The notes: generated by a model not told the origin, from the letters alone. Shown: positions 681 through 14,522, numbered from the stretch's first letter. The stretch is 24,000 bases of DNA from Pontiella sulfatireligans (GCF_900890705.1 NZ_CAAHFH010000002.1:2155458-2179457), one strand, 5' to 3'. Numbers and translations: made by a program.

Positions 681-728
681 CAGAAAAAGGGACGCCCAAA
701 TGCGTGCGCATTTGGACAAATTCCCTTT
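681..728 (-). terminator. Rho-independent terminator downstream of the NifX-fold gene at 750-1088
   Basis: The minus-strand RNA reads AAAGGGA-auuugu-CCAAAUGCG-ca-CGCAUUUGG-gcg-UCCCUUU. It forms a nested hairpin (inner 9-bp stem 696-704/707-715, outer stem 686-692/722-728). UUUUUCUGUUUAU follows directly. Confidence 0.55.
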
Positions 729-749
729 GACTATATCGAATGCAAGGGC

Positions 750-1088
750 CTAGTGGTCGCAAGCATTTTGTCCGGGTTCAAGGGCTCCGGCCATGTAGGC
801 CTTCACGAGCGTTTCCGGATCTTCGGCGGGCGCACCGACGATTACTTCAATGTTTTGCGCATTAAACAGCTGCTGCGCGCGTTGGCCCATGCCTCCGGCA
901 ATAATCATATTCACGCCTCGTTCTGCAAGCCAAGGGGGCAGCAGGCCGGGTTCGTGGGGCGGCGCATCCAGCTCGGTTGTGGCCGTGATGGTTTTGCTCT
1001 CAGGGTTAATGTCGAGCAGGGTAAATGCGACGCAGTGACCGAAGTGCATGTTGAGTCTTCCGTTAACTGTTGGAATAGCTATTTTCAT
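750..1088 (-). CDS. NifX/NifB-fold (dinitrogenase FeMo-cofactor-biosynthesis domain) small protein, paralogue 4
   Basis: The 112-aa ORF starts MKIAIPTVNGRLNMHFGHCVAFTLLDI and contains MIIAGGMGQRAQQLF, the typical layout of this family. An AAGGAAA RBS precedes the ATG. Confidence 0.85.
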   Translation of the reverse strand: MKIAIPTVNGRLNMHFGHCVAFTLLDINPESKTITATTELDAPPHEPGLLPPWLAERGVNMIIAGGMGQRAQQLFNAQNIEVIVGAPAEDPETLVKAYMAGALEPGQNACDH

Positions 1089-1376
1089 TTTTCATTTCCT
1101 TTTTTACGTGGTTTATTTTGGGGCGATTGATTTAAAAAGCGGGTGAATCCGGCGGTTTTACGGGCAACCGGACCGCTCATGACTTTCATAATTTTATCTT
1201 TTGTTAATTTTGGTTTCGAATGAAGGAGTGCAAAATAGTTGGCCGATGGGTTATTCGGAGGCTGGCGGGCGAACCCGCCAAGCCTGCGAAAAAAAAAGAC
1301 ATGTACGTGAAGATTTACAACTTATCGAATGAATCAACGGGAAGGAACCTCTTAAAAACGTACATCTGAAAAGAGT

Positions 1377-2732
1377 CTATTTCCTCATTTTCTTAACAAT
1401 GACCTCAGCGGCTTTGATTAGTGGATAACCTGCTGGTGATCCCGTTAACAGCGGTTGGGTGCCGATCTGCATGGTGAGCAGAACCTTTACCGTAACTCGA
1501 TTCTGAATAAGGAATCCGATCGCATTGGTTAGCTCTCCGGTACTAAAGCCTCCGTATACTTCACCGCCGAGAATCATCCCGCAGTCGGTTGCTACGATCA
1601 GTTTGACCGTCTGTTGATGGGAGTGGGCCAGGTTTCCGGGATGCGTATCCATGCCGGTAAAGCTTCCGCTTATAATGTCAAAGTTTTCACTCTTTGCCCG
1701 GGTTTCAGTGATTCCTGCAGTACCAAAAGCATGTTTTCCGATGGCGGTTGAGTAGATGGCAATGGTGCCTGTAAAGGGTTTGCATGGGCTTAAGGTGTAG
1801 AGGTTCATCGCTGCAACACGAGCCTCCGCACAGGCGGTTGAAGCGAGCATCGTTGCATCCAGCTTTCGGGTGATGAAATCTCTCTTTTCCGCGCAGTCAC
1901 CGATGGCTACAATATCCGTGCTGCAAGGCAGAATTCTCATATATTCACAGGTTTTAATAAAACCAAGTTCATTGAGTTCGATGCCGGCTTCCTGTGCAAT
2001 TTTGGTGTTCGGGGCATATCCCATGGAGAGAATGACGGCATCTGCATCCAATTTTTCACCGCTTGTCAGCGTGATGCTTTCCACTTTATCTTTACCGTTG
2101 ATCTCTTTGATTCCCTTGCCGGTGATCAGGTTGACTCCTCGTTCAATGAGATGCTCTTCTGCAATCTTTCCGAACTCAGGATCAAAGGCTCTGTTGAGGA
2201 TGGTCGGTTCCAGCTCAACGAGCGTAACATGATATCCTTTTTTATTCAGTTCGTCTGAGACTTCAACTCCGATAAACCCTGCGCCGACAACAATGATATT
2301 CTTCATCGGTTTAATCGTTTCTATCATTCGATCCAGATAGACTTTGTTCTTGGGGATTGTATATACGTTTTCTAGCTCCCCGCCTTTTAGCCAGCCTGGT
2401 TTTGTTGGGACGGAACCCGTGGCCATGACCAGTTTCTCATAGTAAAATTTTACACCGCTTGCAAAACTACAGGCATGTTCATCGGGGTGCATTGCGGTCA
2501 TCTTGTCAATAATGATCTCCACCCCCAGGCTTGTAAGAGGCGTGTCTGGAATAATATCCTTATCGCTATTTTCAAGAGAGCCGAAGATGTAGGGGATTCC
2601 GCAAGGAATCAACGCTTTATTCTCCTGTCGGACTAATACAACCTCCTTTTCCGGGTAGGTGGACTTTGTAGTTATTGCGGCCTGTAAGCCTGAGGCTCCG
2701 CCACCGATGACTAACACATCAATTTTTCGCAT
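1377..2732 (-). CDS. FAD-dependent pyridine nucleotide-disulfide oxidoreductase, CoA-disulfide reductase/NADH oxidase-like
   Basis: The 451-aa ORF has an N-terminal FAD dinucleotide fold (VLVIGGGASGLQAA) and a second fold for NAD(P)H (IIVVGAGFIGVEV). Its single redox Cys context (LIPCGIPY) matches the Nox/Npx/CoADR SxxxCG(L/I)PY motif. An AAGGAG RBS is present. The gene is visibly AT-richer than its flanks. Confidence 0.85.
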   Translation of the reverse strand: MRKIDVLVIGGGASGLQAAITTKSTYPEKEVVLVRQENKALIPCGIPYIFGSLENSDKDIIPDTPLTSLGVEIIIDKMTAMHPDEHACSFASGVKFYYEKLVMATGSVPTKPGWLKGGELENVYTIPKNKVYLDRMIETIKPMKNIIVVGAGFIGVEVSDELNKKGYHVTLVELEPTILNRAFDPEFGKIAEEHLIERGVNLITGKGIKEINGKDKVESITLTSGEKLDADAVILSMGYAPNTKIAQEAGIELNELGFIKTCEYMRILPCSTDIVAIGDCAEKRDFITRKLDATMLASTACAEARVAAMNLYTLSPCKPFTGTIAIYSTAIGKHAFGTAGITETRAKSENFDIISGSFTGMDTHPGNLAHSHQQTVKLIVATDCGMILGGEVYGGFSTGELTNAIGFLIQNRVTVKVLLTMQIGTQPLLTGSPAGYPLIKAAEVIVKKMRK

Positions 2733-2829
2733 AGGTTACTCCTTTGTTGCTGGTACGGGTTGGTCGCACCAAGTTTTCTGCTGGATACTCGTTTGTTCAA
2801 AATGTTTGCGTGTTGTATTATCTGAAAGT

Positions 2830-3171
2830 TCAAGGAAGTTTTTCTAATGTTTGCTGAGCTACTTTTATTGTTTTATTGAAATGTTTTTTCAGTCGTGCAG
2901 TCAGTTGTTTTTGTTTTTCAGGGTCGTGCGCATAGTATGGATGGGTGTGAAGCTTCGCGACCCATTCCATATTTTTGTTAATTTCGCCGGGAATTAATTC
3001 GCTGTCGTGGCGCACGGCATTCTGAGGACAAACGCTGTGACATATTCCGCAGCGAATGCAGTTTTCTTGGTTCAGTTCTGCTTTTTGCTTATGAACTTCG
3101 ATGGCGCCTGCCGGGCAACTTGGTTCGCAAATTCCACATCCGGCACACGTTGGTGAATGAATCCATGGCAT
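2830..3171 (-). CDS. 2x[4Fe-4S] ferredoxin-domain protein with a helical C-terminal extension
   Basis: The 113-aa ORF carries two CxxCxxCxxxCP motifs (CAGCGICEPSCP and CIRCGICHSVCP). An AGGGAG RBS lies 7 nt upstream. Confidence 0.85.
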   Translation of the reverse strand: MPWIHSPTCAGCGICEPSCPAGAIEVHKQKAELNQENCIRCGICHSVCPQNAVRHDSELIPGEINKNMEWVAKLHTHPYYAHDPEKQKQLTARLKKHFNKTIKVAQQTLEKLP

Positions 3172-3339
3172 GATCTGACTCCCTATAATTTATGTGTTAA
3201 GCGGTTTCGTGCGCGCTAGATTGCTTTATCCAAAGTCGATGCTTCAGACCAGTTGTCGGGTACTACAAAAACCGCATGGCGAGAGCGTTGTGACGAGGCA
3301 GCAAGATTCTTCATAAGAAATTCCTTTTGAATAGGTATT

Positions 3340-3354
3340 GGGGGGGGGGGGGGG
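3340..3354. repeat. Homopolymeric G15 tract (C15 on the coding strand of the flanking genes)
   Basis: Counted directly: G runs from 3340 to 3354. The tract is intergenic and lies 12 nt downstream of the permease stop codon (TAG, 3367-3369). Confidence 0.95.
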
Positions 3355-3366
3355 CTCTCTCAAGAG

Positions 3367-4710
3367 CTATTTTTTAGCCATGTGTCGAATAATTTCTTCC
3401 TGGGTCAAAACATACGAAGGGGCATTCTGTTCGTTTAGCACAATTACCTTGTATTCGTGGGATCTTTTCATGTTGGTGAGAGCCTCTTTCAGCGGGCTTT
3501 TTGCCGAGGCGAAAAGCACCGGTTCCAACGTTAGGTCCGAAAGCGGGGTTTCCTGCGGGGTTTCAGCGGCGAGGGCATCGAGCACATGGGCGGTGGAGAG
3601 CATGCCGATGGCCTTTTCGTGGTCGTCGAGTACGACGAAGGAGTGGATATGCTCTTCCGCCAGCAACTTCAGGGCGCGATTGAGCGAGTCGGAAAGATGC
3701 AGGGAAAAAACGCCCTCGAGCATCAGGTCGCGCACGGTGGTTTCGGGAGCCGGCCCAAAAATGCGGTCGGTGAATTTTACATACCAGGCGGCGGCTTGAA
3801 CTTGAATGATGTAGGCGAGGGCAATGATCAACGCAATATCAGCGCCCTCTTTTCCAAAGGCGGTCATGGCAATGGCCAGTGCGATGGAAAGGTTGCGCAT
3901 GACGGTTCCATAGACCAGCGCAATGCCGTCGGCGCGGTTGAAAAAGTATTTTCCGACGAAGGTGCTGATCAGGAAGTTCAGGCCATACAGCGCCAGCAAC
4001 GGGCCGATCAGCGTAGCCAGCTGTCCGGGGTTGGAGGCGATGGACTGCGCTTTCAACGCCATGGCCACAAACACAATTCCTAAAACGCCCAGCGTCGAGA
4101 AGGGCGGGAAGACCGGCTTGAGGTCTTTTTGATAGTGCGCCATGCCATAGCGCGCAATCAGGAAGCGCTGCGTCAGGTTGCCGAGCACCAGCGGCAGCAC
4201 GACCACCACCATGATCTGCTTGAAGATCTTGGCCATGGGAATCTCGATGACGGTTCCCATCAGTCCCTTGATGTAGATGGGCGTCAGAATTGAGCCAATG
4301 ATGAGCCCAAAGACGGTCATTTTTACGGCGGCGGCCATATTTCCATTCGCCATGCCGGTCCAAGAGATCGTCATTCCTGAGGTCGGAAGCAGGCTCGCCA
4401 GCAACAGGCCCAGCGCGATGTACGGGGAGTCGGGGAAGGCCCATTTGCCCAGCAAGAACGCAAACAGTGGAATGATGGTGAAGTTGAGCAGCTGGGTGAC
4501 CAGCTGGACTTTCCCGTCGCCGCCCTCAATAACCTTCTTCAGCTGCAGGTTCACCATCATGGGGTAAACCATTAGAAAGGTTAGCGGAACAATCCATTGC
4601 TTTAAGGGCGCGGGATTCCATAGAAGCCCCGCTGCAAAGCCCAGAAGCATTATGGCCGGGATCGCGATGATCAAGCGCTTCTGTATATTGCGTAGCAGCG
4701 TCAGCATCAA
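3367..4710 (-). CDS. SBF-like permease (bile acid:Na+ symporter / ACR3 superfamily) fused to a C-terminal CBS-domain pair
   Basis: The 447-aa ORF has about 10 hydrophobic segments. The motif LLPTSGMTISWTGMANGNMAAAV aligns to the BASS [22 protein letters not shown] and ACR3 signature regions, but without the ACR3 Cys. The last ~125 aa (VRDLMLEGVFSLHLSDSLNRALKLL...FVVLDD...YKVIVLNEQN) look like two CBS motifs. An AGGAA RBS is present. Confidence 0.8.
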   Translation of the reverse strand: MMLTLLRNIQKRLIIAIPAIMLLGFAAGLLWNPAPLKQWIVPLTFLMVYPMMVNLQLKKVIEGGDGKVQLVTQLLNFTIIPLFAFLLGKWAFPDSPYIALGLLLASLLPTSGMTISWTGMANGNMAAAVKMTVFGLIIGSILTPIYIKGLMGTVIEIPMAKIFKQIMVVVVLPLVLGNLTQRFLIARYGMAHYQKDLKPVFPPFSTLGVLGIVFVAMALKAQSIASNPGQLATLIGPLLALYGLNFLISTFVGKYFFNRADGIALVYGTVMRNLSIALAIAMTAFGKEGADIALIIALAYIIQVQAAAWYVKFTDRIFGPAPETTVRDLMLEGVFSLHLSDSLNRALKLLAEEHIHSFVVLDDHEKAIGMLSTAHVLDALAAETPQETPLSDLTLEPVLFASAKSPLKEALTNMKRSHEYKVIVLNEQNAPSYVLTQEEIIRHMAKK

Positions 4711-4720
4711 TCGGGTTTCC

Positions 4721-5551
4721 TTAGCCTATGGATCTTGCGAGAAGGGGTTTGATGATTTCGCGCATCATGTGCGCGGTTTCGCTGGCGGCGTAGCTTTGGA
4801 TGAAGGGCCGGCCGGCGTCGCATGCTTTCCCAATGGCAGGATCGATCGGCAGTTTCCCAAGGAATGGAACACTGAAGTCGGAAGCGATTTTCTCGCCGCC
4901 GCCGGACTGGAAGATGTCCACCACTTCGCCGCACTTCGGGCAGGCAAAGCCACTCATGTTTTCCACAATTCCGAGGATCGGAAGTTCCAGCTTTTGGCAA
5001 AAGGTCAGCGATTTGCGTACATCAACCGCCGCCACCTGCTGCGGGGTAGTAACGATCACTGCGCCGTCGGGATTTTCAATCAGTTGGCAGATCGACAATG
5101 GTTCGTCGCCGGTGCCGGGCGGGCAATCGACAATGAGATAGTCGAGTTCGCCCCATTCTACGTCGCCGAGAAATTGTTTGATCACGCCCATTTTCATCGG
5201 GCCGCGCCAGATAAACGCATCGTCTTCGTTCTGGTTCAGGAATCCGACCGACATCACCTTCAGGTTGCCCACCTGAATCGGGTCGACCGAGTCCGCATTG
5301 GAAACCAGCGACATGCGTCCGAGGCCAAGCATGGTCGGGATGCTCGGTCCGTGGATATCGACATCCAGCAGGCCGACTTTTTTGCCGGCATCTGCCAGCG
5401 CGGTCGCGAGGTTTACGGCAACGGTGCTTTTCCCGACGCCGCCTTTGCCGGAGAGCACGCAGATTTTTTGTTTGATCTGCGCCATGCGCGCATTGATTTT
5501 TTTCTGGTCCTCTTCCGGGCTGGCGGGGGGGTGGGCTGCACATTCGCTCAT
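4721..5551 (-). CDS. Mrp/NBP35/ApbC-family Fe-S cluster carrier P-loop ATPase
   Basis: The 276-aa ORF has a deviant Walker A (SGKGGVGKST), DYLIVDCPPGTGD, and the family CPKCG motif (GFACPKCGEVVDIF). Its ATG overlaps the upstream stop codon as ATGA (5548-5551). Confidence 0.9.
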   Translation of the reverse strand: MSECAAHPPASPEEDQKKINARMAQIKQKICVLSGKGGVGKSTVAVNLATALADAGKKVGLLDVDIHGPSIPTMLGLGRMSLVSNADSVDPIQVGNLKVMSVGFLNQNEDDAFIWRGPMKMGVIKQFLGDVEWGELDYLIVDCPPGTGDEPLSICQLIENPDGAVIVTTPQQVAAVDVRKSLTFCQKLELPILGIVENMSGFACPKCGEVVDIFQSGGGEKIASDFSVPFLGKLPIDPAIGKACDAGRPFIQSYAASETAHMMREIIKPLLARSIG

Positions 5552-6423
5552 TGCATATCTCCTGTATTAAGTTCGAATCCGGCAAATCCGGAGGTGATTT
5601 TGGTGGTTAGGTTTTGTTTGAAATAGTCGATGGCGGCATCACCGGTGCAGTGGCACGGCACGATGAATTCTGGATTGAAATCACGCAGTGCGTCCGTGGT
5701 GGCGACGAGCCGGGCGGCGGAGGCGTTTTTTAGATGCAATCCACCCATGATGCCAACGATACGCTCTTCTTTGCTGGCTTGACGGATATAGTTAACGGTG
5801 TTGATCAGTCCCGAATGGCAACAGCCGCAAATGATCAGCAAGCCGCGCGGGGTTTCGATCCACATCGCCATGTCATCCGTGATTGGGTCGGGCTCTTTGC
5901 CTTCAGGGTCAACGAAGAACGGGCCTCCGGTATCCTCCAGGGGGTGGATGCGTGGGATCGGCCCGGTCAGATGGATTCCGGGAGCAATCTGCGTGGGCTT
6001 CCGGATCCAATTAAGATGGGAGTCGAGCAGGTTTTCGATCAACAGCTGCTGTTCTTCCGGCATCGAAATGATCTTGGGATCTTTGTCGGAATAAATGCTG
6101 TAGCGCTGGCTCAGGATGACTGGATGGGCGAAAACTGAAATCTCGGGATTTTGCTGCAACACATAATCGATTGCGCCGGTGTGGTCGTAGTGCCCGTGGC
6201 TCAGCACCAGCAGATCCGCTTTGGCCGGATCGTTTTTCGTGCATTCGGTGTTGGGGCGCAATGCGTTGCCCTGGCCGGTGTCGAACAAAATGCGGCAATT
6301 CTGGGTTTCGACCCAGATTGAGAGGCCGTGTTCCGCAACCAAGCCAACGGCGGCTTGGTTATCGACCACGATTCTTAGGGAAGGAAGGTGCGCGCTCATT
6401 TTTTCAGGATTCTTTTCAGCCAT
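5548..6423 (-). CDS. MBL-fold metallo-hydrolase, COG1237-like
   Basis: The 291-aa ORF has the HxHxDH motif (LSHGHYDHTG) and the family N-terminus (RIVVDNQ...AEHGLSIWVE). The alternative start at 6399 (MSAHLPS...) forms an ATGA overlap with the upstream stop and may be the true start. Confidence 0.8.
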   Translation of the reverse strand: MAEKNPEKMSAHLPSLRIVVDNQAAVGLVAEHGLSIWVETQNCRILFDTGQGNALRPNTECTKNDPAKADLLVLSHGHYDHTGAIDYVLQQNPEISVFAHPVILSQRYSIYSDKDPKIISMPEEQQLLIENLLDSHLNWIRKPTQIAPGIHLTGPIPRIHPLEDTGGPFFVDPEGKEPDPITDDMAMWIETPRGLLIICGCCHSGLINTVNYIRQASKEERIVGIMGGLHLKNASAARLVATTDALRDFNPEFIVPCHCTGDAAIDYFKQNLTTKITSGFAGFELNTGDMQ

Positions 6424-6803
6424 TGGCTTAGGGTTTGTTTTTCCGGAGGGTTGTAGAAGTGTGCGATGGCCAGCTTGATGGTATCGGCGGCGAGCAGGGC
6501 GCAGTGCTGATGGTCTTCCGGAATGGGGCCGGAGGCTTCGAGCACCTGGGCCTGGGTCATGGCCTCCGCCTCCTCGGGGCGCATGCCTTCGGCCAACTCA
6601 ATCGCTTTGTTGCAGCAGTGTTTGGAATAGCCGCAACCGTCGGTCATGAACGAGCCCTTGCGGATTTTGCCGCCATCGATGCGCAACCAGATTTCGGCGG
6701 TGTCATTGCATGCGCCACGCACCTTCGCGTAGGCGTTGGCATCCCGCATGGGGCCGAACCGCTTTGCACGCGATTCGATGGCCTTCATTGCATCGTTGAA
6801 CAT
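6396..6803 (-). CDS. IscU/NifU N-terminal-domain-like Fe-S scaffold protein
   Basis: Three conserved Cys contexts align to IscU: GACNDT, DGCGYS and HCALLAADTIKLAI. I trimmed the 196-aa track ORF to the Met at 6803, because its Arg-rich N-terminal 61 aa overlap the upstream gene. The alternative ATG at 6788 makes an ATGA overlap with the upstream stop. Confidence 0.8.
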   Translation of the reverse strand: MFNDAMKAIESRAKRFGPMRDANAYAKVRGACNDTAEIWLRIDGGKIRKGSFMTDGCGYSKHCCNKAIELAEGMRPEEAEAMTQAQVLEASGPIPEDHQHCALLAADTIKLAIAHFYNPPEKQTLSQWLKRILKK

Positions 6804-7642
6804 ACGGCTTCCCAGGTTTTGCGTACGGATTTGGCGGCGCGGCCGTTGGAATCCTCGACCAGCGCGCGGGCGTTGATCTGGGCAGTCGTAACAGCTGAGT
6901 CGTACGGAATGCGCCCGACGGGGATTGCGCCGAATTCTCTCGCCAGCGTTTCGATGCGCTCGGTCATGATGGGATTGACGTCCCATTTATTGATGCAGAT
7001 CATCGCCGGGATTTTAAAGTGGTCGGTGAGCTGCAGCACGCGCTTGAGGTCGTGCTCGCCGGAGAGCGTTGGTTCAGAAACCACCAGCACGGCATCGGCG
7101 CCTGTAATGGAGGCGATAACCGGGCAGCCGATGCCGGGCGGGCCGTCAACCAGCAGATATTTGCTGTTTTGCTTTTCGGCGATCTTGCGAGCCTCCTGCC
7201 GCACGAGGCTGACGAGCTTGCCGGAGTTTTCTGCGCCGGGATTCATGTGTGCATGCACCATTTCCCCGCAACGCGTGGTGGAGGCAAACCATTCGCCGCA
7301 GTCCTGTTCGGGAAAGTCGATGGCGTTGACCGGGCAAAACTCAACGCAAGCCCCGCAGCCTTCGCAGGCGAGTGGATCCACTTTGAAATCGCTGATGGCA
7401 TCGAACCGGCAGAGCGTTTCGCACAGGCCGCACTGTGTACAGTCGGCCGACCGGATTTCGGCGGCATGGCCGCTGGTGAAGGTTTCGCGCTGTTGAATGG
7501 TCGGGCTTAAAACCAAATGCAGGTCGGCGGCGTCGACGTCGCAGTCGGCCAAAACTGCATATTCCGCCAGCGCCGCAAACGACGCCGTGATGCTGGTTTT
7601 CCCCGTCCCTCCCTTGCCGCTAATGATTACGAGTTCTTTCAT
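6785..7642 (-). CDS. MinD/CooC-type P-loop ATPase with an inserted 2x[4Fe-4S] ferredoxin domain (COG1149-like), copy B
   Basis: The protein has Walker A (SGKGGTGKTS) followed by CTQCGLCETLC and CEGCGACVEFCP, and then DGPPGIGCP. I chose the start at MKELVIIS (7642) because a GGAG RBS lies 8 nt upstream. The track ORF starts at 7663. Confidence 0.85.
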   Translation of the reverse strand: MKELVIISGKGGTGKTSITASFAALAEYAVLADCDVDAADLHLVLSPTIQQRETFTSGHAAEIRSADCTQCGLCETLCRFDAISDFKVDPLACEGCGACVEFCPVNAIDFPEQDCGEWFASTTRCGEMVHAHMNPGAENSGKLVSLVRQEARKIAEKQNSKYLLVDGPPGIGCPVIASITGADAVLVVSEPTLSGEHDLKRVLQLTDHFKIPAMICINKWDVNPIMTERIETLAREFGAIPVGRIPYDSAVTTAQINARALVEDSNGRAAKSVRKTWEAVCSTMQ

Positions 7643-7715
7643 ACTGATGCTCCAGTACCACATGGTTTTGAACAGAAGGACGCAAAGCCCGCAAAGGACT
7701 GCTGGTTAAAATGAA

Positions 7716-8597
7716 TCATAATGCCGCCAGCTTTTCGCGTTCTTTGCGAGTTTCTGTTGAATGATTTGTGAGCGCTCTTAATTTTTCTGGAAGAGCGGCG
7801 AGGGTTTCGCGCAGTTCGGGCAGAACCGTTGTGAGGGTCTGGCCTCGAGAATAGGCTTCGGCGACGCGCCGGTCTTCGGGAATCTGCAGCACCAGCGGAA
7901 TATTTTCTTCGCTGCAGTATTCGCTGATGCGGTTGTTCTCGCCGTTCGCGCGGTTGACCGCCACGGCGAAGGGAAGACCCAGCTCGCGGAGTGTTTCGAC
8001 TGCCAGTTTGAGGTCGTGCAGGCCGAAGGGCGTGGGCTCGGTAACGAGTAGGGCGATGTCGCATCCTTTGACCGCTGTAACAAATGGGCACGAAGTCCCC
8101 GGCGGACAGTCGATGAGGGTCAGGCCCTCTTCAAGTGCATGCTTTTTCACCGCTCGGATAACGGGGGGCGACATTGCGTGGCCGACGTTCATCAAGCCCG
8201 ACACAAATTCAACCTCGCCGTGCCGGCCAATTTCGAGCAGGCCGATTTCCTTCTGCGTTTCTTCGATGGCGCCGGTTGGGCAGATTCGAGCGCAAGCCCC
8301 GCAACTGTGGCAAAGCTCCGGGAACACCAATGTTTTTTTGCCGAGCGAAGCGATCGCGCTAAACTGGCAGACGCGGCTGCACTCGCCGCAACCGGTGCAT
8401 TTTTCTGGATCGACCTGCGGCACGAGGCTGAATACTGTTTCTGTTTGCTCGATTTTGGGCTGAATGAAAAAGTGGCTGTTCGGCTCCTCGACGTCGCAGT
8501 CGAGCAGACGGACGGGCCCGGTTGCTGCAAAGGCCAGCGCGCAAGAGATCGTCGTTTTGCCGGTGCCTCCTTTTCCGGATGCTATAGCTATTTTCAT
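7716..8597 (-). CDS. MinD/CooC-type P-loop ATPase with an inserted 2x[4Fe-4S] ferredoxin domain (COG1149-like), copy A
   Basis: The 293-aa ORF has MKIAIASGKGGTGKTT, CTGCGECSRVC, CHSCGACARICP and DCPPGTSCP. It makes an ATGA overlap with the upstream gene (8594-8597). Confidence 0.85.
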   Translation of the reverse strand: MKIAIASGKGGTGKTTISCALAFAATGPVRLLDCDVEEPNSHFFIQPKIEQTETVFSLVPQVDPEKCTGCGECSRVCQFSAIASLGKKTLVFPELCHSCGACARICPTGAIEETQKEIGLLEIGRHGEVEFVSGLMNVGHAMSPPVIRAVKKHALEEGLTLIDCPPGTSCPFVTAVKGCDIALLVTEPTPFGLHDLKLAVETLRELGLPFAVAVNRANGENNRISEYCSEENIPLVLQIPEDRRVAEAYSRGQTLTTVLPELRETLAALPEKLRALTNHSTETRKEREKLAAL

Positions 8598-9460
8598 TGT
8601 TCAGTTCCTTTATGTTCGCGCACGACCCAGCCGCCGACCGGCTCACCGAGGTCTCTTCCAATCACTGGACATTTAACCTGTGTCAGGAAAAAGAGCGGGC
8701 GCTTGGCTTGGCTGAGGCTTTCGTAGTTGGCCTGCCCTTTAGCGATCACGAGTCCCGCTTCGTTGAAGAGCCAGCGGAAGGGGGCGTTGCAGTCCTCCAA
8801 AATGGTGCCCGGAGCATCGCTGCCGTTTTCTGTCAGTTCGGCTACTTCATGCAGCCCGGCGGCGCGGGCGTCGGCCAGCGTGGCGTCGTTGATGACCGGC
8901 GAGCCCTTTACGGCGTAAAAAACATCCGTATTGGGGAATTGCTCAATCAGCAGGCGGTCGAAGACGGTTTCGCCGGCGTTGTCGCCCAGAAACAGAATCG
9001 ATCCGGCCCGCCGCACCGCTTTGCGGAGCTGCTCCACGGCCGCATCGTTGAGCGGTTGGACGCGGGTGTTTTCGATAAAGTTGGCGAGGTCCAGCTGAGT
9101 CCATTTGGTGGTTAGGGCAAAATCGAGGATGTTTCCGGCAATCGAAAAGCGGAGCGCCATTTTAAACGGATCGATCGATCCGTTAATGATGGCCCGGGCT
9201 TCATCCATTATGCGAAGGGCGAATTCGGTTGAACGACGTTTTATTTTTTCGTAAGGATCCGCGCGACCGGTTTCCTCTCGGATGATCCGGTGCGTGATCT
9301 GTGCCATTTCGGGCGGCGTGCGCGTGGTGGGAAACCGGGCCGCCTCCTGCAGAACGCGTTGCAGCGTTCGGTGCGTCAGCGCTTCATCGCTGTCCACCTG
9401 CTGCAACGCGTCGTAGGCCTGCTGAATAAAACAGGGAATGCATTGATTATATATCTGCAT
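8594..9460 (-). CDS. DUF89 / ARMT1-like (damage-control phosphatase family) protein
   Basis: The 288-aa ORF has the N-terminal CIPC motif (MQIYNQCIPCFIQQ), GDNAGETVFD and AKGQANYESL, all typical of DUF89. Confidence 0.8.
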   Translation of the reverse strand: MQIYNQCIPCFIQQAYDALQQVDSDEALTHRTLQRVLQEAARFPTTRTPPEMAQITHRIIREETGRADPYEKIKRRSTEFALRIMDEARAIINGSIDPFKMALRFSIAGNILDFALTTKWTQLDLANFIENTRVQPLNDAAVEQLRKAVRRAGSILFLGDNAGETVFDRLLIEQFPNTDVFYAVKGSPVINDATLADARAAGLHEVAELTENGSDAPGTILEDCNAPFRWLFNEAGLVIAKGQANYESLSQAKRPLFFLTQVKCPVIGRDLGEPVGGWVVREHKGTEQ

Positions 9461-9461
9461 G

Positions 9462-9827
9462 CTAGGCCCAGTGCCCTTCCACGTTGGCTTCTTCTGATTT
9501 GGTCAGTTGGCCTTGCTTCAACATTTCAATGGCTTCGCTGACGGAGGCGTCGGCGATGCAGGTGTAGACCTTGATGCCGGCGGCATCGAGGGTGGCGTAG
9601 GCCTTGGGGCCGCAGTTTCCGGTGATGACGCAGTCGACCATTTCTTCCTTGATGTGGATGGCCGACTGAATGCCGGCGCCCTGCGCCGCATTAAGGTTCT
9701 GCGAATTTTCCTTCATGTAGAATACGCCGGTTTCGGTGTGGTAGATCAGGAATTGGGGCGCACGGCCGAACCGGCTGTCGACTTTTGATTCGAGGTTGGT
9801 TCCCGCGGTGGTAATTGCTATTTTCAT
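9462..9827 (-). CDS. NifX/NifB-fold small protein, paralogue 2
   Basis: The 121-aa ORF reads MKIAITTAG...VDSRFGRAPQFLIY...VITGNCGPKAYATLDAAGIKVY. An AGGAT RBS is present. Confidence 0.85.
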   Translation of the reverse strand: MKIAITTAGTNLESKVDSRFGRAPQFLIYHTETGVFYMKENSQNLNAAQGAGIQSAIHIKEEMVDCVITGNCGPKAYATLDAAGIKVYTCIADASVSEAIEMLKQGQLTKSEEANVEGHWA

Positions 9828-9836
9828 GGGTTGATC

Positions 9837-10058
9837 CTAATTTGTTAGTTGTTCTGGATTTCGCTTAAATGGACGAGTTGCTTTTGGAGCGACGTGAGCT
9901 GCGTTTGCAGGGCATCGATCTTTCCTTGCAACACGATGGTGTCGGCCGCTGCAACAGCATGCTGCGAGTGGCTGCGGAAGAATCCACGCGCGGATTCCCG
10001 TGCCGCGTCCTGTCATTGGTTCGGCCCGGGTTGGTTCCGTTCCGTTTTGTTGCGGCAT
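9837..10058 (-). CDS. DUF5320-like small protein, apparently frameshifted (the family-like C-terminus is in the +1 frame and ends at 9845)
   Basis: A strong RBS (AAAGGAGG) lies 6 nt before the ATG at 10058. The N-terminus MPQQNGTEPTRAEPMTGRGTG matches the DUF5320 signature MPxxDGTGPxGxGPMTGRGxG. The rest of frame 0 is low-plausibility sequence. The +1 frame instead encodes RGFFRSHSQHAVAAADTIVLQGKIDALQTQLTSLQKQLVHLSEIQNN*, the expected coiled-coil tail. Confidence 0.6.
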   Translation of the reverse strand: MPQQNGTEPTRAEPMTGRGTGIRAWILPQPLAACCCSGRHHRVARKDRCPANAAHVAPKATRPFKRNPEQLTN

Positions 10059-10077
10059 GATATGCCTCCTTTAAATG

Positions 10078-10437
10078 TTAATGGCAACGGCCCTGACGCC
10101 GCTGGCATCGGCGGCACCCCGGCATGGAAAAGCCAGGCTGGTCGAGCTGGTTGGATTTGAATGCTTCCAGCACATCGTGGATTTCGCCGGACACGAAGGC
10201 CTGCACCTGTATCCCGTGCGCTTCCGCCTGCTGTATTAACGGCCGGGAAATGGCACCGCAGATGAGGACATCGACCTGATGGTCTTCAAGAAAGGCAATA
10301 CGGCTTTGCGGACTGTCGGCAGGGCCGCCTAAGTTCGATGTGTTCATTCCGCCATCCGCATCCATCAGAACCACGGTTCCGGCAACGTCGAACAACGGGG
10401 CAACCCGTCCTTGCCACTCTGTAACAGCAACTTTCAT
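10078..10437 (-). CDS. NifX/NifB-fold small protein, paralogue 1, with a Cys/Arg-rich C-terminal tail
   Basis: The 119-aa ORF reads MKVAVTEWQGRVAPLFDVAGTVVLMD...VLICGAISRPLIQQAEAHGIQV. Its tail is SMPGCRRCQRRQGRCH. Confidence 0.8.
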   Translation of the reverse strand: MKVAVTEWQGRVAPLFDVAGTVVLMDADGGMNTSNLGGPADSPQSRIAFLEDHQVDVLICGAISRPLIQQAEAHGIQVQAFVSGEIHDVLEAFKSNQLDQPGFSMPGCRRCQRRQGRCH

Positions 10438-10448
10438 TGCCTGCTTTA

Positions 10449-10465
10449 ATGCACTAGGTGTGCCA
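10449..10465 (-). promoter_or_regulatory. Sigma54 (-24/-12) promoter candidate for the NifX/MinD-Fdx gene train
   Basis: The minus strand reads TGGCAC-ACCTA-GTGCAT, with exact GG-N10-GC spacing. It has the same -12 variant (GTGC) as the promoter at 20676. It sits directly downstream of a sigma54 activator gene. Caveat: the predicted transcription start (~10438-10439) lies only 1-2 nt before the ATG at 10437. Confidence 0.5.
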
Positions 10466-10554
10466 ACGTATGAGCAGGGAAGGAGGGGCTTTTCAACCTG
10501 TACCCGTTAAACGATTAAGAAAAGAGGCGGTTAGGTTTCGACAAAACGAATAGA

Positions 10555-10566
10555 TGCATAAATGCA
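10555..10566. promoter_or_regulatory. Inverted repeat TGCAT-NN-ATGCA: candidate enhancer (UAS) for the 10449 promoter, or alternatively a weak second -24/-12 element
   Basis: The plus strand has TGCAT AA ATGCA at 10555-10566, centred about 120 bp upstream of the predicted transcription start. The same stretch on the minus strand reads TGGTTG-CATTT-ATGCAT (10554-10570), which also has GG-N10-GC spacing but a poor -24 match. Confidence 0.3.
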
Positions 10567-10600
10567 ACCACCAGGCGGCCGAAAGGTAGCGAAACTGCAC

Positions 10601-11944
10601 CTATTGATCTTTGGACGGGTGAAGGCCGAGGGCCTTCATTTTGCGATAGAGCGTGGTTTTATGAATGTTGAGGTCGCGAGCAGTGGCGAGGCGGTTAAAC
10701 CCGTTTTTTTCGAGGGCGGCCAGAATGGTCTGCGATTCGGCGGAGCGCCGTGCAGTTTCCATGTCGGTTGAACCTTCGGACTGAATGGAGCGGCCGCGGA
10801 GTTCGGCGGGAAGATGTTTGATCTCAATCTGCGGGTCGGTGCAGAGCACAAAGGCGCGTTCAATAATGTTTTCGAGCTCGCGGACGTTGCCGGGCCAGTC
10901 GTGCGCCATCAGCAGGGAGCGGGCCCCGTTGGATATGCCGGCAATCGCCTTGCTGTGGATGCGGTTGAAACGCCGGATAAAATGTTCAATCAGCAGCGAC
11001 AGGTCGTCTTTGCGCTGGCGAAGCGGGGGGAGCTCGATGTTGATCACGTTTATGCGATAGAAGAGGTCTTCCCGGAAGGAGCCCTCTTTCACGCGCGCTG
11101 GCAGGTCGCGGTGGGTGGCTGCAATAATCCGGGCTTTGGTGTGTACGGTGGTATTGCTGCCGAGCGGTTCGTAGGTGTGTTCCTGCAGGACGCGCAGCAG
11201 GCGGACCTGAAGTGCAGGGCTGATCTCGCCGATTTCATCGAGGAAAACCGTTCCGTCGGCCGCCTGTGCAAACCGGCCGGGCTTGTCTTGGATGGCCCCG
11301 GTGAAGGCACCCTTTTTATAGCCGAAAAGTTCGGATTCGAGCAGGGTGTCGGGCAGGGCGGCGCAGTTGATGGCGATGAAGGGCTTGACCGCGCGCGTGC
11401 TCATGCCGTGTATGGCGCGGGCGAGCAGTTCTTTTCCGGTTCCGGTTTCGCCTTGAATCAGCAGGGTGATGTCGCTGGCGGCCACGGACGAGGCGAGCTC
11501 GAAGACGGGCTGCATGGCGTGGCTGTGGCTGACCATATCGCCGAGCGAGTAGCGGCCGGAGATTTCTTTGCGGAGTGTTTCGAGTTCGCTGAGATCGCGG
11601 AAGGTTTCGGCGCCGCCGATGACCTTTCCATCTTCGTCGTGCAGCACGGCGGTGGAGACGCTGGCAGGGACGCGCTCGCCGTCGGCGTTGATGATATAAC
11701 AGGCGTGGGCAATGATCGGCTTGCCGGTGGAGAGCGTTTTGCCGAGTGCGCAGGCGCCTTCGCACATGCTGGAGCGGAAGACCTCGGAGCAGCGGCGGCC
11801 GATGGCTTCGTCGCGTGGGACGCCCGTGATCTTTTCGGCGGCGCGGTTGAAGGAGGTGATACACCAGTCGGTGCCGACCGTGAACACGCCGTCGGATATG
11901 CTTTCGAGGATTGCCTCGGTTGTTGCTATGGAATCGGTTCCCAT
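10601..11944 (-). CDS. Sigma54-dependent transcriptional activator (PAS sensor + AAA+ sigma54-interaction domain + Fis-type HTH)
   Basis: The 447-aa ORF has a PAS domain (ILESISDGVFTVGTDWCITSFNRAAEKITG), Walker A (GETGTGKE), the GAFTGA loop (KKGAFTGA), Walker B (GTVFLDEIGE), ELENIIERA, and a C-terminal HTH (ATARDLNIHKTTLYRKMKALG). Confidence 0.92.
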   Translation of the reverse strand: MGTDSIATTEAILESISDGVFTVGTDWCITSFNRAAEKITGVPRDEAIGRRCSEVFRSSMCEGACALGKTLSTGKPIIAHACYIINADGERVPASVSTAVLHDEDGKVIGGAETFRDLSELETLRKEISGRYSLGDMVSHSHAMQPVFELASSVAASDITLLIQGETGTGKELLARAIHGMSTRAVKPFIAINCAALPDTLLESELFGYKKGAFTGAIQDKPGRFAQAADGTVFLDEIGEISPALQVRLLRVLQEHTYEPLGSNTTVHTKARIIAATHRDLPARVKEGSFREDLFYRINVINIELPPLRQRKDDLSLLIEHFIRRFNRIHSKAIAGISNGARSLLMAHDWPGNVRELENIIERAFVLCTDPQIEIKHLPAELRGRSIQSEGSTDMETARRSAESQTILAALEKNGFNRLATARDLNIHKTTLYRKMKALGLHPSKDQ

Positions 11945-12011: not shown

Positions 12012-12803
12012 TTAGCGGTTGAACAGACGTTTAGCCGACAACAGGCCGATGCCGAATAGTGCAACCAGAGTGAGCACGGCCGGTTCCGGCACCGCTTCAA
12101 TCTTGTCGATTGAATAGTCCATGTTCTTGTTTTCGGAGCAGATGTGTAGCGAGAACGCTTCCACCTTCGTCATATCGATCGATGCACCCAAAGCCGAAAA
12201 ATCGATTTCGAATGCCGCGGCGCGACCAGCAGCCAGCGCGTTGTAGTTTTCATCCATCCAGGCGTTGGCGGCATCATCCATATTGGCTTGGTACAGATTC
12301 TTTTCGCCCTCGATTTTGACCGATAGAAGGACATCGTTGAAAAAATTAGTGGAAGGATCCATTCCGCCTGCACTGGCAAACGTGATGCTGAAGCGGTCGT
12401 TGCCGCCGCCGTCGGTAAAGTCGAGGACCGGACTGATCGTGCCGTTGCCGAAGGGATCGGTGTCCAGATTGCTTCCCCATCCGGCGGTTCCGTCATAAGC
12501 TAAATAGATACTGGGGCTGGCTTTTTTGTTGGTGTAAACCTCGAGTTTTCCATTGGCGAACTTGGCGGTGGTGGTGCCGCCGGAACTTGATGACTCGCAG
12601 CCTACACTTCCGTCGCGAATGCCGCCGATGACGGAGGAAGTGGTATCCTCCCACGCAGTTTGATTCCCTTGGCTCGTCGTAGTTTGGTTGGCAGGATCGC
12701 TGAAATCATCGATCAGAAAGGCATTGGCCGAAACCATTGGAGCGGTCGCAAGCAACAGACCACAAATCGGAAAAACTAGGAAAGATGGTGAATATCGTCT
12801 CAT
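12012..12803 (-). CDS. Secreted PEP-CTERM sorting-domain protein (putative exosortase substrate)
   Basis: The 263-aa ORF has an N-terminal signal peptide (LLLATAPMVSANA) and a Ser/Thr/Gly/Asn-rich body. Its C-terminus, VPEPAVLTLVALFGIGLLSAKRLFNR, shows a PEP motif, a TM helix and a basic tail. Confidence 0.8.
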   Translation of the reverse strand: MRRYSPSFLVFPICGLLLATAPMVSANAFLIDDFSDPANQTTTSQGNQTAWEDTTSSVIGGIRDGSVGCESSSSGGTTTAKFANGKLEVYTNKKASPSIYLAYDGTAGWGSNLDTDPFGNGTISPVLDFTDGGGNDRFSITFASAGGMDPSTNFFNDVLLSVKIEGEKNLYQANMDDAANAWMDENYNALAAGRAAAFEIDFSALGASIDMTKVEAFSLHICSENKNMDYSIDKIEAVPEPAVLTLVALFGIGLLSAKRLFNR

Positions 12804-12939: not shown

Positions 12940-13902
12940 TCAGACCTGAGCGATTTCGAGGCCGAGGGTGCGGATCATTTCGAGGTCGGTTTCGTATTGG
13001 GAGCCGGCGATGGTGAGATAGTTGCCGGTCATGAGGCCGTTGGCGCCGGCAGAGAAGAGGTCGGCCTGGCGTTCGCCCAGCACGTGGGTGCGTCCGCCGC
13101 AGATGCGCAGGGTGGTGCCGGGCAGCAGGAAGCGGTAGACCGCGATGATGCGCAGGGCTTCTTCGGCGGCAAGTGGAGGCGTATCCTTCATCGGGGTGCC
13201 TGCGTGGGCATAGAGAAAGTTGATCGGCACGCTGTTGACGCCGAGGCCGCGCAGGGTGAGCGCGAGCTCGATGCGGTCGTCCCAGCTTTCGCCGAGGCCG
13301 AAGAGGCCTCCGCAACAGACGGCGAGGCCGGTGGCCATGGCGGCCTTGACGGTGTCGAGGCGCTGTGACCATTGCTGAGTGGAGCAGACTTCGGGATAAT
13401 AGTTTTCGGAGGTTTCGAGGTTGTGGTGGAAGCGGGTGAGGCCGGCGTCTTTGAGGTTGGCAAGCTCGTCTTCTGTGAGGCGGCCGAGCGAGGCGCAGAC
13501 GGGGCCGGGTTTTCCGTTGGAAACGCTGCGGACGGTGTCAGCCAGCACGTTGAGCTCGTCGCCGGAAAGCTTGCCGCCGCTGGTGACGACGCCGCAGTGG
13601 CGGTCGTTGCCGGAAATGGTTTCTTCAATGCGCCGCTTGAGCTCCCCTTTTTTCATGAAGGGGTAGGCTTCGATTTCGGTGGAGTTGTGCCCGCTTTGGG
13701 AGCAGAAGCGGCAATCCATGTCGCATTGGCCGCTTTTGGCGTTAATGATGGAGCAAAGTTGGATTTGTCTGCCGAAGTGGGCTTCGCGCACCTGCGTTGC
13801 CGCGGTGAAGAGTTCGATTTCGCTGCAGTTGATGAGCGAGCGGGCTTCTTCGGGCGTGCAGCCGTTGCCGGCGAGCGCATTTTTTATGATGGTTTCGAGC
13901 AT
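12940..13902 (-). CDS. bioB: Biotin synthase (radical SAM)
   Basis: The 320-aa ORF has the radical-SAM CxxxCxxC motif (CDMDCRFC), FHHNLETS, and a BioB-like C-terminal half (SVPINFL...GANGLMTGNYLT). Confidence 0.9.
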   Translation of the reverse strand: MLETIIKNALAGNGCTPEEARSLINCSEIELFTAATQVREAHFGRQIQLCSIINAKSGQCDMDCRFCSQSGHNSTEIEAYPFMKKGELKRRIEETISGNDRHCGVVTSGGKLSGDELNVLADTVRSVSNGKPGPVCASLGRLTEDELANLKDAGLTRFHHNLETSENYYPEVCSTQQWSQRLDTVKAAMATGLAVCCGGLFGLGESWDDRIELALTLRGLGVNSVPINFLYAHAGTPMKDTPPLAAEEALRIIAVYRFLLPGTTLRICGGRTHVLGERQADLFSAGANGLMTGNYLTIAGSQYETDLEMIRTLGLEIAQV

Positions 13903-13964
13903 GGTTCCCTGTCTCCGGTGGTTGGGATTGCAACAGGGTACGTGAGTTCCTGCGTTTGGGAAGC

Positions 13965-14465
13965 CTATTTTTCAGCTGAGGGAACCACCGCTGAGGGAAC
14001 CACCATCACATTGCATCGGGCATGGCGAATAATGCTTTCGGAAACACTGCCTAGCAAAGCTTTATGCAGCAGGCCGTGCCCGTGGGAGCCGATGATGATC
14101 ATGTCGGCCTCTAATTCTTCGGCTTTTTCGATGATGAGTTTAGCCGGGTCGCCTTTGATGAGCATGGCTTGCGCTTTGACGCCCTTTTCACGAAGGCAGG
14201 AAGCGATGCCGAGCAGCTGGGCGTGTTCGCGCTTGATTTCTTTTGCGCTGAGGTCGCGAGCGAGCTGCGCGTCGCCGGGCATGCTGGAGAATTCAGGCGA
14301 GTAGGAGTCGAATTGTACGCTGTCGTAGAGTATGGCGCGGGTTTCATCGGAACTGGCGTGGATAATCCAGAGCTTGGACCCGAGCGCTTTGGCGAGTGCG
14401 GCCGCTTGTTCAACGACGGCGGCGGTGGTGGTTGAAAAATCTACGGCAGCGAGTATCGGTTTCAT
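13965..14465 (-). CDS. Universal stress protein (UspA family)
   Basis: The 166-aa ORF reads MKPILAAVDFS...IIGSHGHGLLHKALLGSVSESIIRHARCNVMVVP. A GGAGG RBS lies 8 nt upstream. Confidence 0.85.
   Translation of the reverse strand: MKPILAAVDFSTTTAAVVEQAAALAKALGSKLWIIHASSDETRAILYDSVQFDSYSPEFSSMPGDAQLARDLSAKEIKREHAQLLGIASCLREKGVKAQAMLIKGDPAKLIIEKAEELEADMIIIGSHGHGLLHKALLGSVSESIIRHARCNVMVVPSAVVPSAEK
13975..14004. repeat. Perfect 15-bp tandem duplication (GCTGAGGGAACCACC x2) at the 3' end of the usp gene
   Basis: Read directly from the sequence. It encodes the duplicated C-terminal pentapeptide VVPSA-VVPSA. Confidence 0.9.
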
Positions 14466-14522
14466 ATTATGAGCCTCCGTTTACTGAGGAACATCATATG
14501 CAGAATCATGCGTTTGGCAAGG

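Follow-up and report, generated by a model that had tools for sequence, protein, structure and literature searches.

The stretch analyzed here is a 24,000-nucleotide window of the Pontiella sulfatireligans genome (GCF_900890705.1, NZ_CAAHFH010000002.1:2155458-2179457), in which fourteen co-directional open reading frames (ORFs) occupy positions 750-11944 of the minus strand (Table 1). Three of the products (DUF89, permease and flavoprotein) match P. sulfatireligans proteins with 100% identity. From their sequences, these genes are identified as an orp (orange protein complex) locus in an extended form that is carried entirely on one strand. The orp system, its regulator OrpR and the carrier MrpORP are already known: in Desulfovibrio vulgaris orp is sigma54-dependent, Orp3, 4, 5, 8 and 9 associate in a complex, and a [4Fe-4S] cluster bound by MrpORP is transferred to Orp3-4-8 in vitro. 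Among strict anaerobes this complex is a conserved one (PMC8359166). An earlier note on this DNA had claimed a fourteen-gene row with an orp-like core, and both are found. The row is present as a set of minus-strand ORFs, and the core is recognized by the OrpR signature, the sigma54 element, a pair of MinD-type ATPases with ferredoxin (Fer4) inserts, a homologue of the orange protein in PDB entry 2WFB and a match to the MrpORP model. The family calls were checked with profile hidden Markov models (HMMs), and thirteen of the fourteen genes score above Pfam or NCBIfam thresholds, the exception being the DUF5320 ORF.

Table 1. Features of the P. sulfatireligans orp-type locus, listed in the direction of transcription.
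Feature	Position in window	Strand	Basis or remark
OrpR orthologue, PAS - sigma54 AAA+ - Fis-type HTH enhancer-binding protein	10601-11944	-	Pfam Sigma54_activat (231 bits), PAS_9/PAS_4, HTH_8
Candidate OrpR-binding palindrome 1, GGTGCAGTTTCGCTACC	10585-10601	-	overlaps orpR stop codon
Candidate OrpR-binding palindrome 2, GGTTGCATTTATGCATC	10553-10569	-	spaced 32 bp from palindrome 1 and lying about 100 bp ahead of the -24 element
Predicted sigma54 -24/-12 element, TGGCACacctaGTGCA	10450-10465	-	strict pattern TGGCAC-N5-GTGCA
Cys-tailed NifX (NifXcys) with conserved MPGC motif and a tail rich in Cys and Arg; leads the operon	10078-10437	-	Pfam Nitro_FeMo-Co, 34 bits
DUF5320 remnant, frameshifted	9837-10058	-	Pfam 17.9 bits, cut-off 27
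NifX2, orange-protein homologue (Orp8/ORP)	9462-9827	-	Pfam Nitro_FeMo-Co, 77.5 bits
DUF89/ARMT1 subfamily I metal-dependent phosphatase	8594-9460	-	Pfam ARMT1/DUF89, 206.7 bits
MinD/CooC-type ATPase with inserted 2x[4Fe-4S], copy a (Orp3/Orp4 type)	7716-8597	-	Pfam CbiA, Fer4 x2
MinD/CooC-type ATPase with inserted 2x[4Fe-4S], copy b	6785-7663, probable start 7642	-	Pfam CbiA, Fer4 x2
IscU-like U-type scaffold, 130 residues	6396-6788	-	Pfam NifU_N, 48.2 bits
COG1237-type metallo-beta-lactamase-fold hydrolase	5548-6399	-	Pfam Lactamase_B, 32.3 bits
MrpORP N-terminal Mrp/NBP35 ATPase part	4721-5551	-	Pfam ParA/NUBPL, 343.9 bits
Cargo segment, 3.6 kb	1102-4739	-	blastn against P. desulfatans
SBF-CBS permease (SBF and two CBS)	3367-4707	-	Pfam
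2x[4Fe-4S] ferredoxin	2830-3171	-	Pfam Fer4
CoADR-like flavoprotein, 451 residues	1377-2732	-	Pfam Pyr_redox_2, Pyr_redox_dim
DUF302 remnant, 21 residues, gene 3' end	1130-1192	-	71% identical to intact gene of a Pontiella metagenome-assembled genome
MrpORP C-terminal NifX-type domain as separate gene (nifX3)	750-1088	-	NCBIfam MrpORP, 128.5 bits, positions 265-365; Pfam Nitro_FeMo-Co, 71.4 bits
Terminator-like hairpin	693-718	-	11-bp stem and T-rich tail, directly after the final gene

The regulator and its promoter region

The cognate PAS-AAA+-HTH activator proposed in the earlier note is borne out by the domain architecture of the first ORF and by the cysteine/glutamate signature of its PAS domain, which carries C52, E54, C61 and C65 at positions identical to those of the published OrpR of D. 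vulgaris Hildenborough (DvH). In the DvH protein C52, C61 and C65 are required for redox sensing, an Asp or Glu is conserved at position 54, these residues hold a redox-sensing [4Fe-4S] cluster, and the orp operons are activated only at low redox potential (PMC8359166). The motif G-x-x-C-x-[ED]...C-x3-C is retained in 26 activators (52-85% identity) from related loci in Acidobacteriota, Planctomycetota, Verrucomicrobiota, Desulfobacterota and other groups, nearly all of which adjoin orp-type genes; activators more distant than this set are without the Cys/Glu motif. The orpR homologue of Pontiella desulfatans (locus L001, positions 7323-8659) is broken into two ORFs of 407 and 38 residues by a frameshift before the HTH domain, which is either a sequencing indel or the mark of an inactivated regulator.

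A -24/-12 promoter had also been claimed in front of the first gene, and a putative one is present there. The strict sigma54 pattern occurs twice in the window against 0.07 matches expected, a count of two being reached by none of 100 shuffles, and 21 of 35 listed loci (the window included) have an equivalent element 5' of their homologue of the first gene. In four Pontiellaceae genomes and one Planctomycetia metagenome-assembled genome (MAG) it stands at -28/-29 from the ATG, a spacing that implies a nearly leaderless transcript. Upstream of the promoter lie two candidate palindromes of the form GGTWGC-N5/6-GCWACC, to both of which OrpR may bind; in the intergenic regions of four Pontiellaceae the pair is conserved in position. 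No match to the IHF consensus, at up to one mismatch, was found between the palindromes and the promoter. The second perfect sigma54-type element of the window, TGGCACggatggTGCT at 20676-20691 on the plus strand, stands at the start of a gene for a FadL/TodX-family outer-membrane protein. Next to this gene, on its 3' side, comes one for a hybrid receiver-histidine kinase; an activator gene belonging to this element was not identified.

Core, accessory and cargo genes

Two MinD/CooC-type ATPases with 2x[4Fe-4S] inserts had been predicted, and both are confirmed by CbiA and Fer4 matches together with, in the alignment, a deviant Walker A motif and eight invariant ferredoxin cysteines; the two paralogues share 33% mutual identity. 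The number of genes with the NifX fold, in contrast to the four claimed, is three, since the Cys-tailed variant is the product of 10078-10437 itself and there is no fourth in the window. By sequence comparison NifX2 is homologous to the orange protein: its PDB matches include MTH1175 (1EO1, E=3e-15) and the D. gigas orange protein (ORP; 2WFB, E=1.7e-14 over 108 residues). Of 21 NifXcys homologues, 18-21 keep the residues D17, C60, G61, G84 and M105-P-G-C108. Beyond the MPGC motif the protein continues in an Arg/Gly/Cys-rich tail that resembles DUF5320; in at least one related locus (L062) NifX and DUF5320 parts lie within one long ORF, and in another (L040) there is the tail resemblance only.

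The DUF5320 peptide of the earlier note survives in part. A family resemblance is retained at the N-terminus, where the Pfam match spans residues 1-39 only, and the score stays below the cut-off. Compared with three relatives (P. desulfatans, the Pontiellaceae genome B1224 and L007, a Pontiella MAG), the gene has an internal deletion of 77 nt that takes out the Gly/Arg/Cys-rich middle part and places the coiled-coil C-terminal half in another frame, so that the N-terminal (10058-9993) and C-terminal (9988-9848) halves match in different frames. Judged from this comparison the gene is probably a pseudogene in P. sulfatireligans; a programmed frameshift was considered and rejected in favor of the deletion.

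Between NifX2 and the Mrp-type ATPase the row contains three extra genes in addition to the MinD-Fer4 pair. The DUF89 protein matches AF1104 (2FFJ, E=3e-41) and PH1575 (2G8L), conserves the DNxGE and KGxxNxE metal and phosphate motifs and reaches 161 bits with the NCBIfam equivalog, the cut-off of which is 440; its gene lies immediately 5' of the MinD-Fer4 pair in Pontiellaceae and in loci L003 and L006. Its CxxC motif and additional Cys were considered as an orp-specific metal site, which was rejected because AF1104 and PH1575 carry the same motif, making it a trait of the entire family. The IscU-like protein scores below the cut-offs of the NCBIfam NifU_clost and IscU models; among 24 orp-associated IscU-like proteins, C27, D29, C52 and C96 are present in all and H95 in 23, and the ligand set of a U-type scaffold (three Cys, Asp and His) is complete in the window protein. 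The third, the metallo-beta-lactamase-fold (MBL) hydrolase, matches TM1679 (3H3E) and 2P4Z with E~1e-30 and has the HxHxDH motif as well as conserved C193 and H250-C251. In orp-associated COG1237 MBLs the motifs G-C193-x-H195 and H250-C251, each with a Cys beside a metal-ligand His, occur in 19-20 of 20 sequences, which hints at an unusual metal site or at thiol chemistry.

Tight junctions had been described for many genes of the row, and several are found. There are four ATGA overlaps (DUF89/MinD-a, MinD-b/IscU-like, IscU-like/MBL and MBL/Mrp), a count for which the start of the IscU-like gene has to be moved from 6986 to 6788 and that of the MBL gene set at 6399, and three other junctions have gaps of 1-19 nt. 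The final three junctions, in contrast, leave spacers of 195, 97 and 288 nt; across the ferredoxin and flavoprotein genes the G+C content falls to 0.44-0.47, compared with 0.55-0.61 in the remainder of the row. The 195-nt spacer between permease and ferredoxin contains a run of 15 G at 3340-3354 (15 C on the gene strand), which may represent either a tract prone to slippage or an error of assembly.

The claimed Mrp/ApbC ATPase is supported by its ParA/NUBPL match, by the Walker A sequence GKGGVGKS and a CPKC motif, and by a score of 388 bits with the NCBIfam MrpORP model (NF041136), of whose 365 positions the match covers 1-250. Positions 265-365 of this model are matched by nifX3, 3.6 kb away; each half falls below the cut-off of 450, and their sum lies above it. 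In P. desulfatans the row ends with a fused MrpORP of 395 residues (ParA and Nitro_FeMo-Co), followed by MoxR/BatA genes, and the two separate window proteins are 88.6% (ATPase part) and 85% (C-terminal domain) identical to the corresponding regions of this fusion. At the DNA level, window positions 6210-4740 align with P. desulfatans 13535-15005 and positions 1101-3 with 15028-16147, and from these boundaries the cargo segment falls inside a 22-bp stretch of the P. desulfatans mrpORP linker. Read from these alignments, mrpORP of P. sulfatireligans is a gene split by cargo inserted in its former linker.

The cargo differs among the Pontiellaceae. Where the window has its cargo, L007 carries a fused CoADR-rhodanese gene together with DUF302, and B1224 (L088) carries SBF-CBS and CoADR-rhodanese. 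The possibility that the whole insert is one recent foreign block was rejected because the mrp/SBF-CBS junction is common to the window and B1224 (79% DNA identity), which leaves only the ferredoxin and flavoprotein part as strain-specific. Just upstream of nifX3 the DUF302 remnant reads as the scar of a cassette replacement. Probably, a cassette entered the linker, and in this strain CoADR-rhodanese and most of DUF302 were then replaced by the ferredoxin and a rhodanese-less flavoprotein, although the order of these events may have been otherwise. When transposon-type ends were sought around the insert, a short AAGGAAA repeat was the sole candidate; it was not accepted as a target duplication, as it doubles as a ribosome-binding site.

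The flavoprotein is only 27% identical to the L007 enzyme. It has FAD and NAD(P)H folds, a dimerization domain, a single redox-active Cys near the N-terminus and no rhodanese domain. Its best PDB matches are the Pyrococcus/Thermococcus CoADRs (E~1e-40, end to end), with the active-site Cys of PCGIPY retained; with the NCBIfam CoADR equivalog it scores 193.5 bits, well below the cut-off of 578.8, so that membership is assigned at the family level only. The earlier note had placed permease, ferredoxin and flavoprotein in a self-contained pathway of uptake and reduction. In that form the claim is not supported, since all three lie in the segment that interrupts mrpORP and the cargo differs between Pontiellaceae: these genes are best read as lying outside the core, as a variable thiol/sulfane-sulfur redox cassette in the Pontiellaceae mrpORP linker.

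Related loci in other genomes

Species-representative genomes were scanned with a MinD-Fer4 alignment anchored on copy b, which yielded 80 loci (L008-L087) from many bacterial phyla and from two archaeal MAGs, with copy-b homologues 51-65% identical; no Desulfovibrio locus was among the 80. Family counts by tblastn were taken on the 55 loci of at least 12 kb. Nearly all of these contain a second MinD-Fer4 and an ORP-like NifX (54 each), followed in frequency by MrpORP-C-like NifX (48), Mrp (29), Cys-tailed NifX (26), OrpR-like (24), IscU-like (22), MBL (18), DUF134 (13) and DUF89 (12) genes; CoADR-rhodanese-type genes, from other phyla, occur in 7, a hotdog thioesterase in 6 and a ferredoxin in 4, and the window-type flavoprotein and SBF-CBS in none. 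That the extra genes extend beyond this genome, as the earlier note supposed, is consequently true of the IscU-like, MBL and DUF89 genes; the window-type flavoprotein was met in no other orp locus examined, and SBF-CBS adjoins orp genes only occasionally. At least one of the former three lies on the same strand within 8 kb in 34 of the 55 loci, and because they recur across phyla they are considered part of a widespread extended orp variant.

Unbiased clustering of ORFs ranks the same families at the top and brings in further ones: a radical SAM protein in 15 loci, a Zn-ribbon protein in 13, and Fur, CGGC, TrmO_N, DUF364 and peroxiredoxin in 6 each. The gene order of the window recurs in Planctomycetota, Acidobacteriota, Verrucomicrobiota and Smithella; the archaeal MAGs have the same families in another order, and no OrpR match was found in the archaeal orp-type loci sampled. 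A cysteine desulfurase (query: E. coli IscS) lies nearby in only 1 of the 80 loci, and none lies in the window. Mrp and NifX are fused in 10 and separate in 27 of the 80, and the frequency of both arrangements agrees with the published view that this fusion arose repeatedly. The composition of the loci also varies with their regulator: NifXcys is present in 20 of 21 loci with OrpR versus 6 of 34 without (Fisher p=1.3e-8, not corrected for kinship), and DUF134 genes are present in 2 of 21 versus 11 of 34, a distribution that suggests two regulatory flavors of orp-type clusters.

Upstream of orpR, the region 12940-20479 (minus strand) contains genes for a KAS (FabF-like), two histidine kinases, a Usp protein and a true BioB (361 bits), and the order of the block from KAS to orpR is the same in P. 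desulfatans and the Pontiella MAG. This conserved order places biotin synthase, a consumer of Fe-S clusters, directly upstream of the orp regulator. Between bioB and orpR the window has a further gene (12012-12803, minus strand) for a protein of 263 residues with a C-terminal PEP-CTERM-like signal (VPEP, a hydrophobic stretch and a basic tail) and no Pfam match; as bioB is directly 5' of orpR in three other Pontiellaceae genomes, this gene looks inserted.

Possible working of the locus and known counterparts

The conserved U-type scaffold, the near absence of cysteine desulfurases and the families of the recurrent neighbors together point to Fe-S assembly and delivery, and we favor, with moderate confidence, a redox-gated machine for this purpose that has a U-type scaffold of its own and no cysteine desulfurase. 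In such a machine, the OrpR orthologue would sense low redox potential through the [4Fe-4S] cluster of its PAS domain, bind the two palindromes and activate the sigma54 promoter, making the Fe-S line of the operon specific to anaerobic growth. Clusters would be built on the IscU-like scaffold, taken over by the Mrp/NBP35-type carrier with its CxxC motif, and handed on to the two MinD-Fer4 ATPases, the orange-protein homologue, the Cys-tailed NifX and the detached MrpORP C-domain as recipients or holders, while the DUF89 phosphatase and the COG1237 MBL hydrolase would act as recurrent accessory enzymes. Two reports describe CoADR-RHD enzymes as reducing persulfides or sulfane sulfur to H2S (PMC7969121, PMC9405070), and for this reason the cassette is regarded as an optional thiol/sulfane-sulfur redox add-on that may supply sulfur.

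Several points weigh against this reading. The P. sulfatireligans locus is known here from its sequence alone, and its comparison with D. vulgaris orp was made through proxies, namely the NCBIfam MrpORP model, PDB entry 2WFB and the published OrpR residues. Its discoverers go on describing the physiological role of the complex as unclear, and a part in cell division has been proposed. With regard to regulation, only about 14 nt separate the end of the -12 element from the ATG of the first gene (10437-10465 region), which means a leaderless mRNA or else an erroneous start or promoter call; the candidate palindromes by themselves are not enriched in the window; and the DvH OrpR-binding palindrome, GGGCGYRTTTTGCGCCC, has no match in the window at up to three mismatches, the candidates resembling it in layout and differing from it in sequence. 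With such long final gaps and the lower G+C, the last three or four genes could have promoters of their own. Furthermore, all three extra genes occur together outside the Pontiellaceae in only 1 of the 55 long loci, a Thermoguttaceae MAG (among contigs below 12 kb, also in one Planctomycetaceae MAG), which makes the extended set modular rather than fixed. DUF5320, too, is present in 41 of the 80 loci according to a small HMM, used because tblastn under-detects the family (3 loci), and yet it is broken here.

As for the place of the cargo in this machine, it is a substantial possibility, if somewhat short of an even chance, that the SBF-CBS, ferredoxin and CoADR-like part is an unrelated reactive-sulfur or metalloid stress cassette that settled in a tolerant mrpORP linker and contributes nothing to orp. 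Its genes are indeed met elsewhere: in a Lentisphaeria MAG without orp genes (L089), SBF-CBS is accompanied by CoADR-rhodanese, thioredoxin and an ArsR-type regulator; ferredoxin homologues (75-80% protein and 82% DNA identity) adjoin SBF-CBS or CoADR-rhodanese in two Kiritimatiellales-like contigs (L091, L093), where genes for RND efflux, Usp and peroxiredoxin are found as well; and the window-type flavoprotein is a stand-alone gene in other genomes, with a 95% identical copy in a non-orp context (L171) and copies in Bacteroidales and in Sphaerochaeta, where it follows an ArsR-type regulator. In the metagenome sample SBF-CBS is mostly apart from orp genes. Its absence, and that of the flavoprotein, from the long loci, the changing cargo, the lower G+C and the long gaps also speak for this possibility. 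On the other hand, three Pontiellaceae hold a cassette of this theme exactly between mrp and the detached NifX domain, CoADR-RHD-type genes recur in orp loci of other phyla, a Spirochaetales contig and a Desulfobulbus MAG have SBF-CBS (57-89% identity across phyla) 3' of their orp genes, and CBS-less SBF relatives lie between NifX-like and DUF134 genes in at least four metagenome contigs. Given these mixed contexts, the link between cassette and orp is recurrent but loose. The same gaps, together with the mosaic history of the cassette and weak sigma70-like matches on the minus strand (2846-2817 and 1219-1191), would also fit a division of the row into two to four transcription units, with a sigma54 unit reaching to mrp or SBF-CBS and with ferredoxin, flavoprotein and nifX3 under promoters of their own. 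This we regard as rather unlikely: promoter-like matches are no commoner than in shuffles, no convincing minus-strand terminator precedes the hairpin at 718-693, and nifX3 was once part of mrpORP and therefore needs co-expression with mrp. The hairpin is the top minus-strand match of the terminator scan, with nothing comparable on that strand within the row, although the number of matches overall is at chance level and the hairpin is accordingly weak evidence; the row may form a single transcript.

Improbable, in our view, is a wider scheme in which extended orp serves as a further, anaerobe-specific and redox-gated route to Fe-S or mixed-metal-sulfide centers, with a U-type scaffold of its own that needs no desulfurase and draws on sulfide or on CoA- or protein-persulfide, with the recurrent CoADR-rhodanese, hotdog thioesterase, DUF89 and MBL genes as a CoA/pantetheine-persulfide sulfur supply branch and SBF-CBS moving a sulfur anion. 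Even less credence is given to a heterometallic Mo(W)/Cu-sulfide cluster, as in the D. gigas orange protein, for which SBF-CBS would import an oxyanion or thiometallate and the NifX-fold proteins would act as carriers. NifX-fold proteins are cofactor carriers in nitrogenase maturation, NifX2 is homologous to the D. gigas protein, Orp8 homologues bind a non-covalent [S2MoS2CuS2MoS2] cluster, and SBF-type permease genes recur beside NifX-like genes; however, the row and its recurrent neighbors include no genes for molybdate, tungstate or copper transport or cofactors, neither the Moco riboswitch nor any other Rfam family or riboswitch matches the window or its long spacers, the components characterized in D. 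vulgaris bind Fe-S clusters, and the permease is absent from most orp loci. Least probable of all is that the MinD-like ATPases work mainly in positioning or cell division, the metal centers being only regulatory. Inactivation of orpR in D. vulgaris leads to morphological defects, a role in septum positioning has been proposed and MrpORP localizes at the cell pole, but the recurrent neighbors belong to Fe-S and metal-handling families (IscU-like, NifX-fold, Mrp, radical SAM, Fur, CGGC and DUF364) rather than being division genes, and the original authors themselves term the role unclear.

The P. sulfatireligans row extends what is known of orp in several respects. The earlier note had called the extended gene set undescribed, and the searchable literature, which does not cover the founding 2011 orp paper, is indeed silent on orp loci with IscU-like, COG1237 MBL, DUF89, DUF5320 or CoADR genes and on orp beyond Desulfovibrio-type organisms. 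The OrpR signature and sigma54 control reach past Desulfovibrio into Kiritimatiellota, Planctomycetota, Acidobacteriota and Verrucomicrobiota, and among some 90 relatives a dedicated U-type scaffold accompanies the orp core, a cysteine desulfurase hardly ever does, and a small set of hydrolases and persulfide-type reductases joins the core repeatedly. These associations offer testable leads on how anaerobes make or repair Fe-S centers at low redox potential, for which P. sulfatireligans provides a cultivable host outside Desulfovibrio, and the locus also documents the splitting of a two-domain gene through insertion of cargo at the linker.

Compared with the ISC and NIF systems (IscU/NifU with IscS/NifS), the IscU-like protein has the same three Cys, Asp and His ligands, whereas the locus has no cysteine desulfurase, chaperone or ISC-type ferredoxin and the scores remain below the NCBIfam equivalog cut-offs. 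The NifX, NafY and NifB C-terminal carriers of nitrogenase maturation share Nitro_FeMo-Co with three genes of the row, but there are no nif genes in the window and the nifX equivalog score is 20.4 against a cut-off of 112. Among the CoADR and persulfide reductases (Pyrococcus CoADR/NSR, A. fulgidus Npsr and E. faecalis CoAPR), the flavoprotein aligns with Pyrococcus/Thermococcus CoADR, including the PCGIPY Cys; its relatives at the same site are CoADR-rhodanese fusions, whereas the window enzyme is rhodanese-less and paired with a ferredoxin. The carriers Nbp35/Cfd1 of the eukaryotic CIA system and the bacterial ApbC/Mrp have the same P-loop, deviant Walker A motif and CxxC bridging a [4Fe-4S] cluster, MrpORP grouping closer to Nbp35/Cfd1 than to ApbC; in the window, unlike in those systems, the carrier is tied to a NifX-type domain or gene and lies inside a sigma54 operon.

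The closest counterpart is the DvH locus itself (orp3-4-5/orpR/orp7-8-9; DVU2103-DVU2109), from which the row differs in its layout and its additions. In DvH two divergent operons flank orpR, whereas in this member of the Kiritimatiellota all genes lie on one strand downstream of orpR; the activator palindrome is another one, and the activator has GAFTGA where DVU2106 is listed with GAFTDA. The window has no gene for DUF134, which we take to be the Orp7 family, its mrpORP is split by the 3.6-kb insert, and it has additional IscU-like, COG1237 MBL, DUF89, Cys-tailed NifX and broken DUF5320 genes. Shared by both, in contrast, are a sigma54 promoter (predicted in the window) with a cognate PAS-AAA+-HTH activator and its Cys triad, the two MinD-type ATPases with 2x[4Fe-4S], the orange-protein homologue, an Mrp/NBP35 carrier and a NifX-type domain, which in the window are two separate genes, and the restriction to anaerobes.

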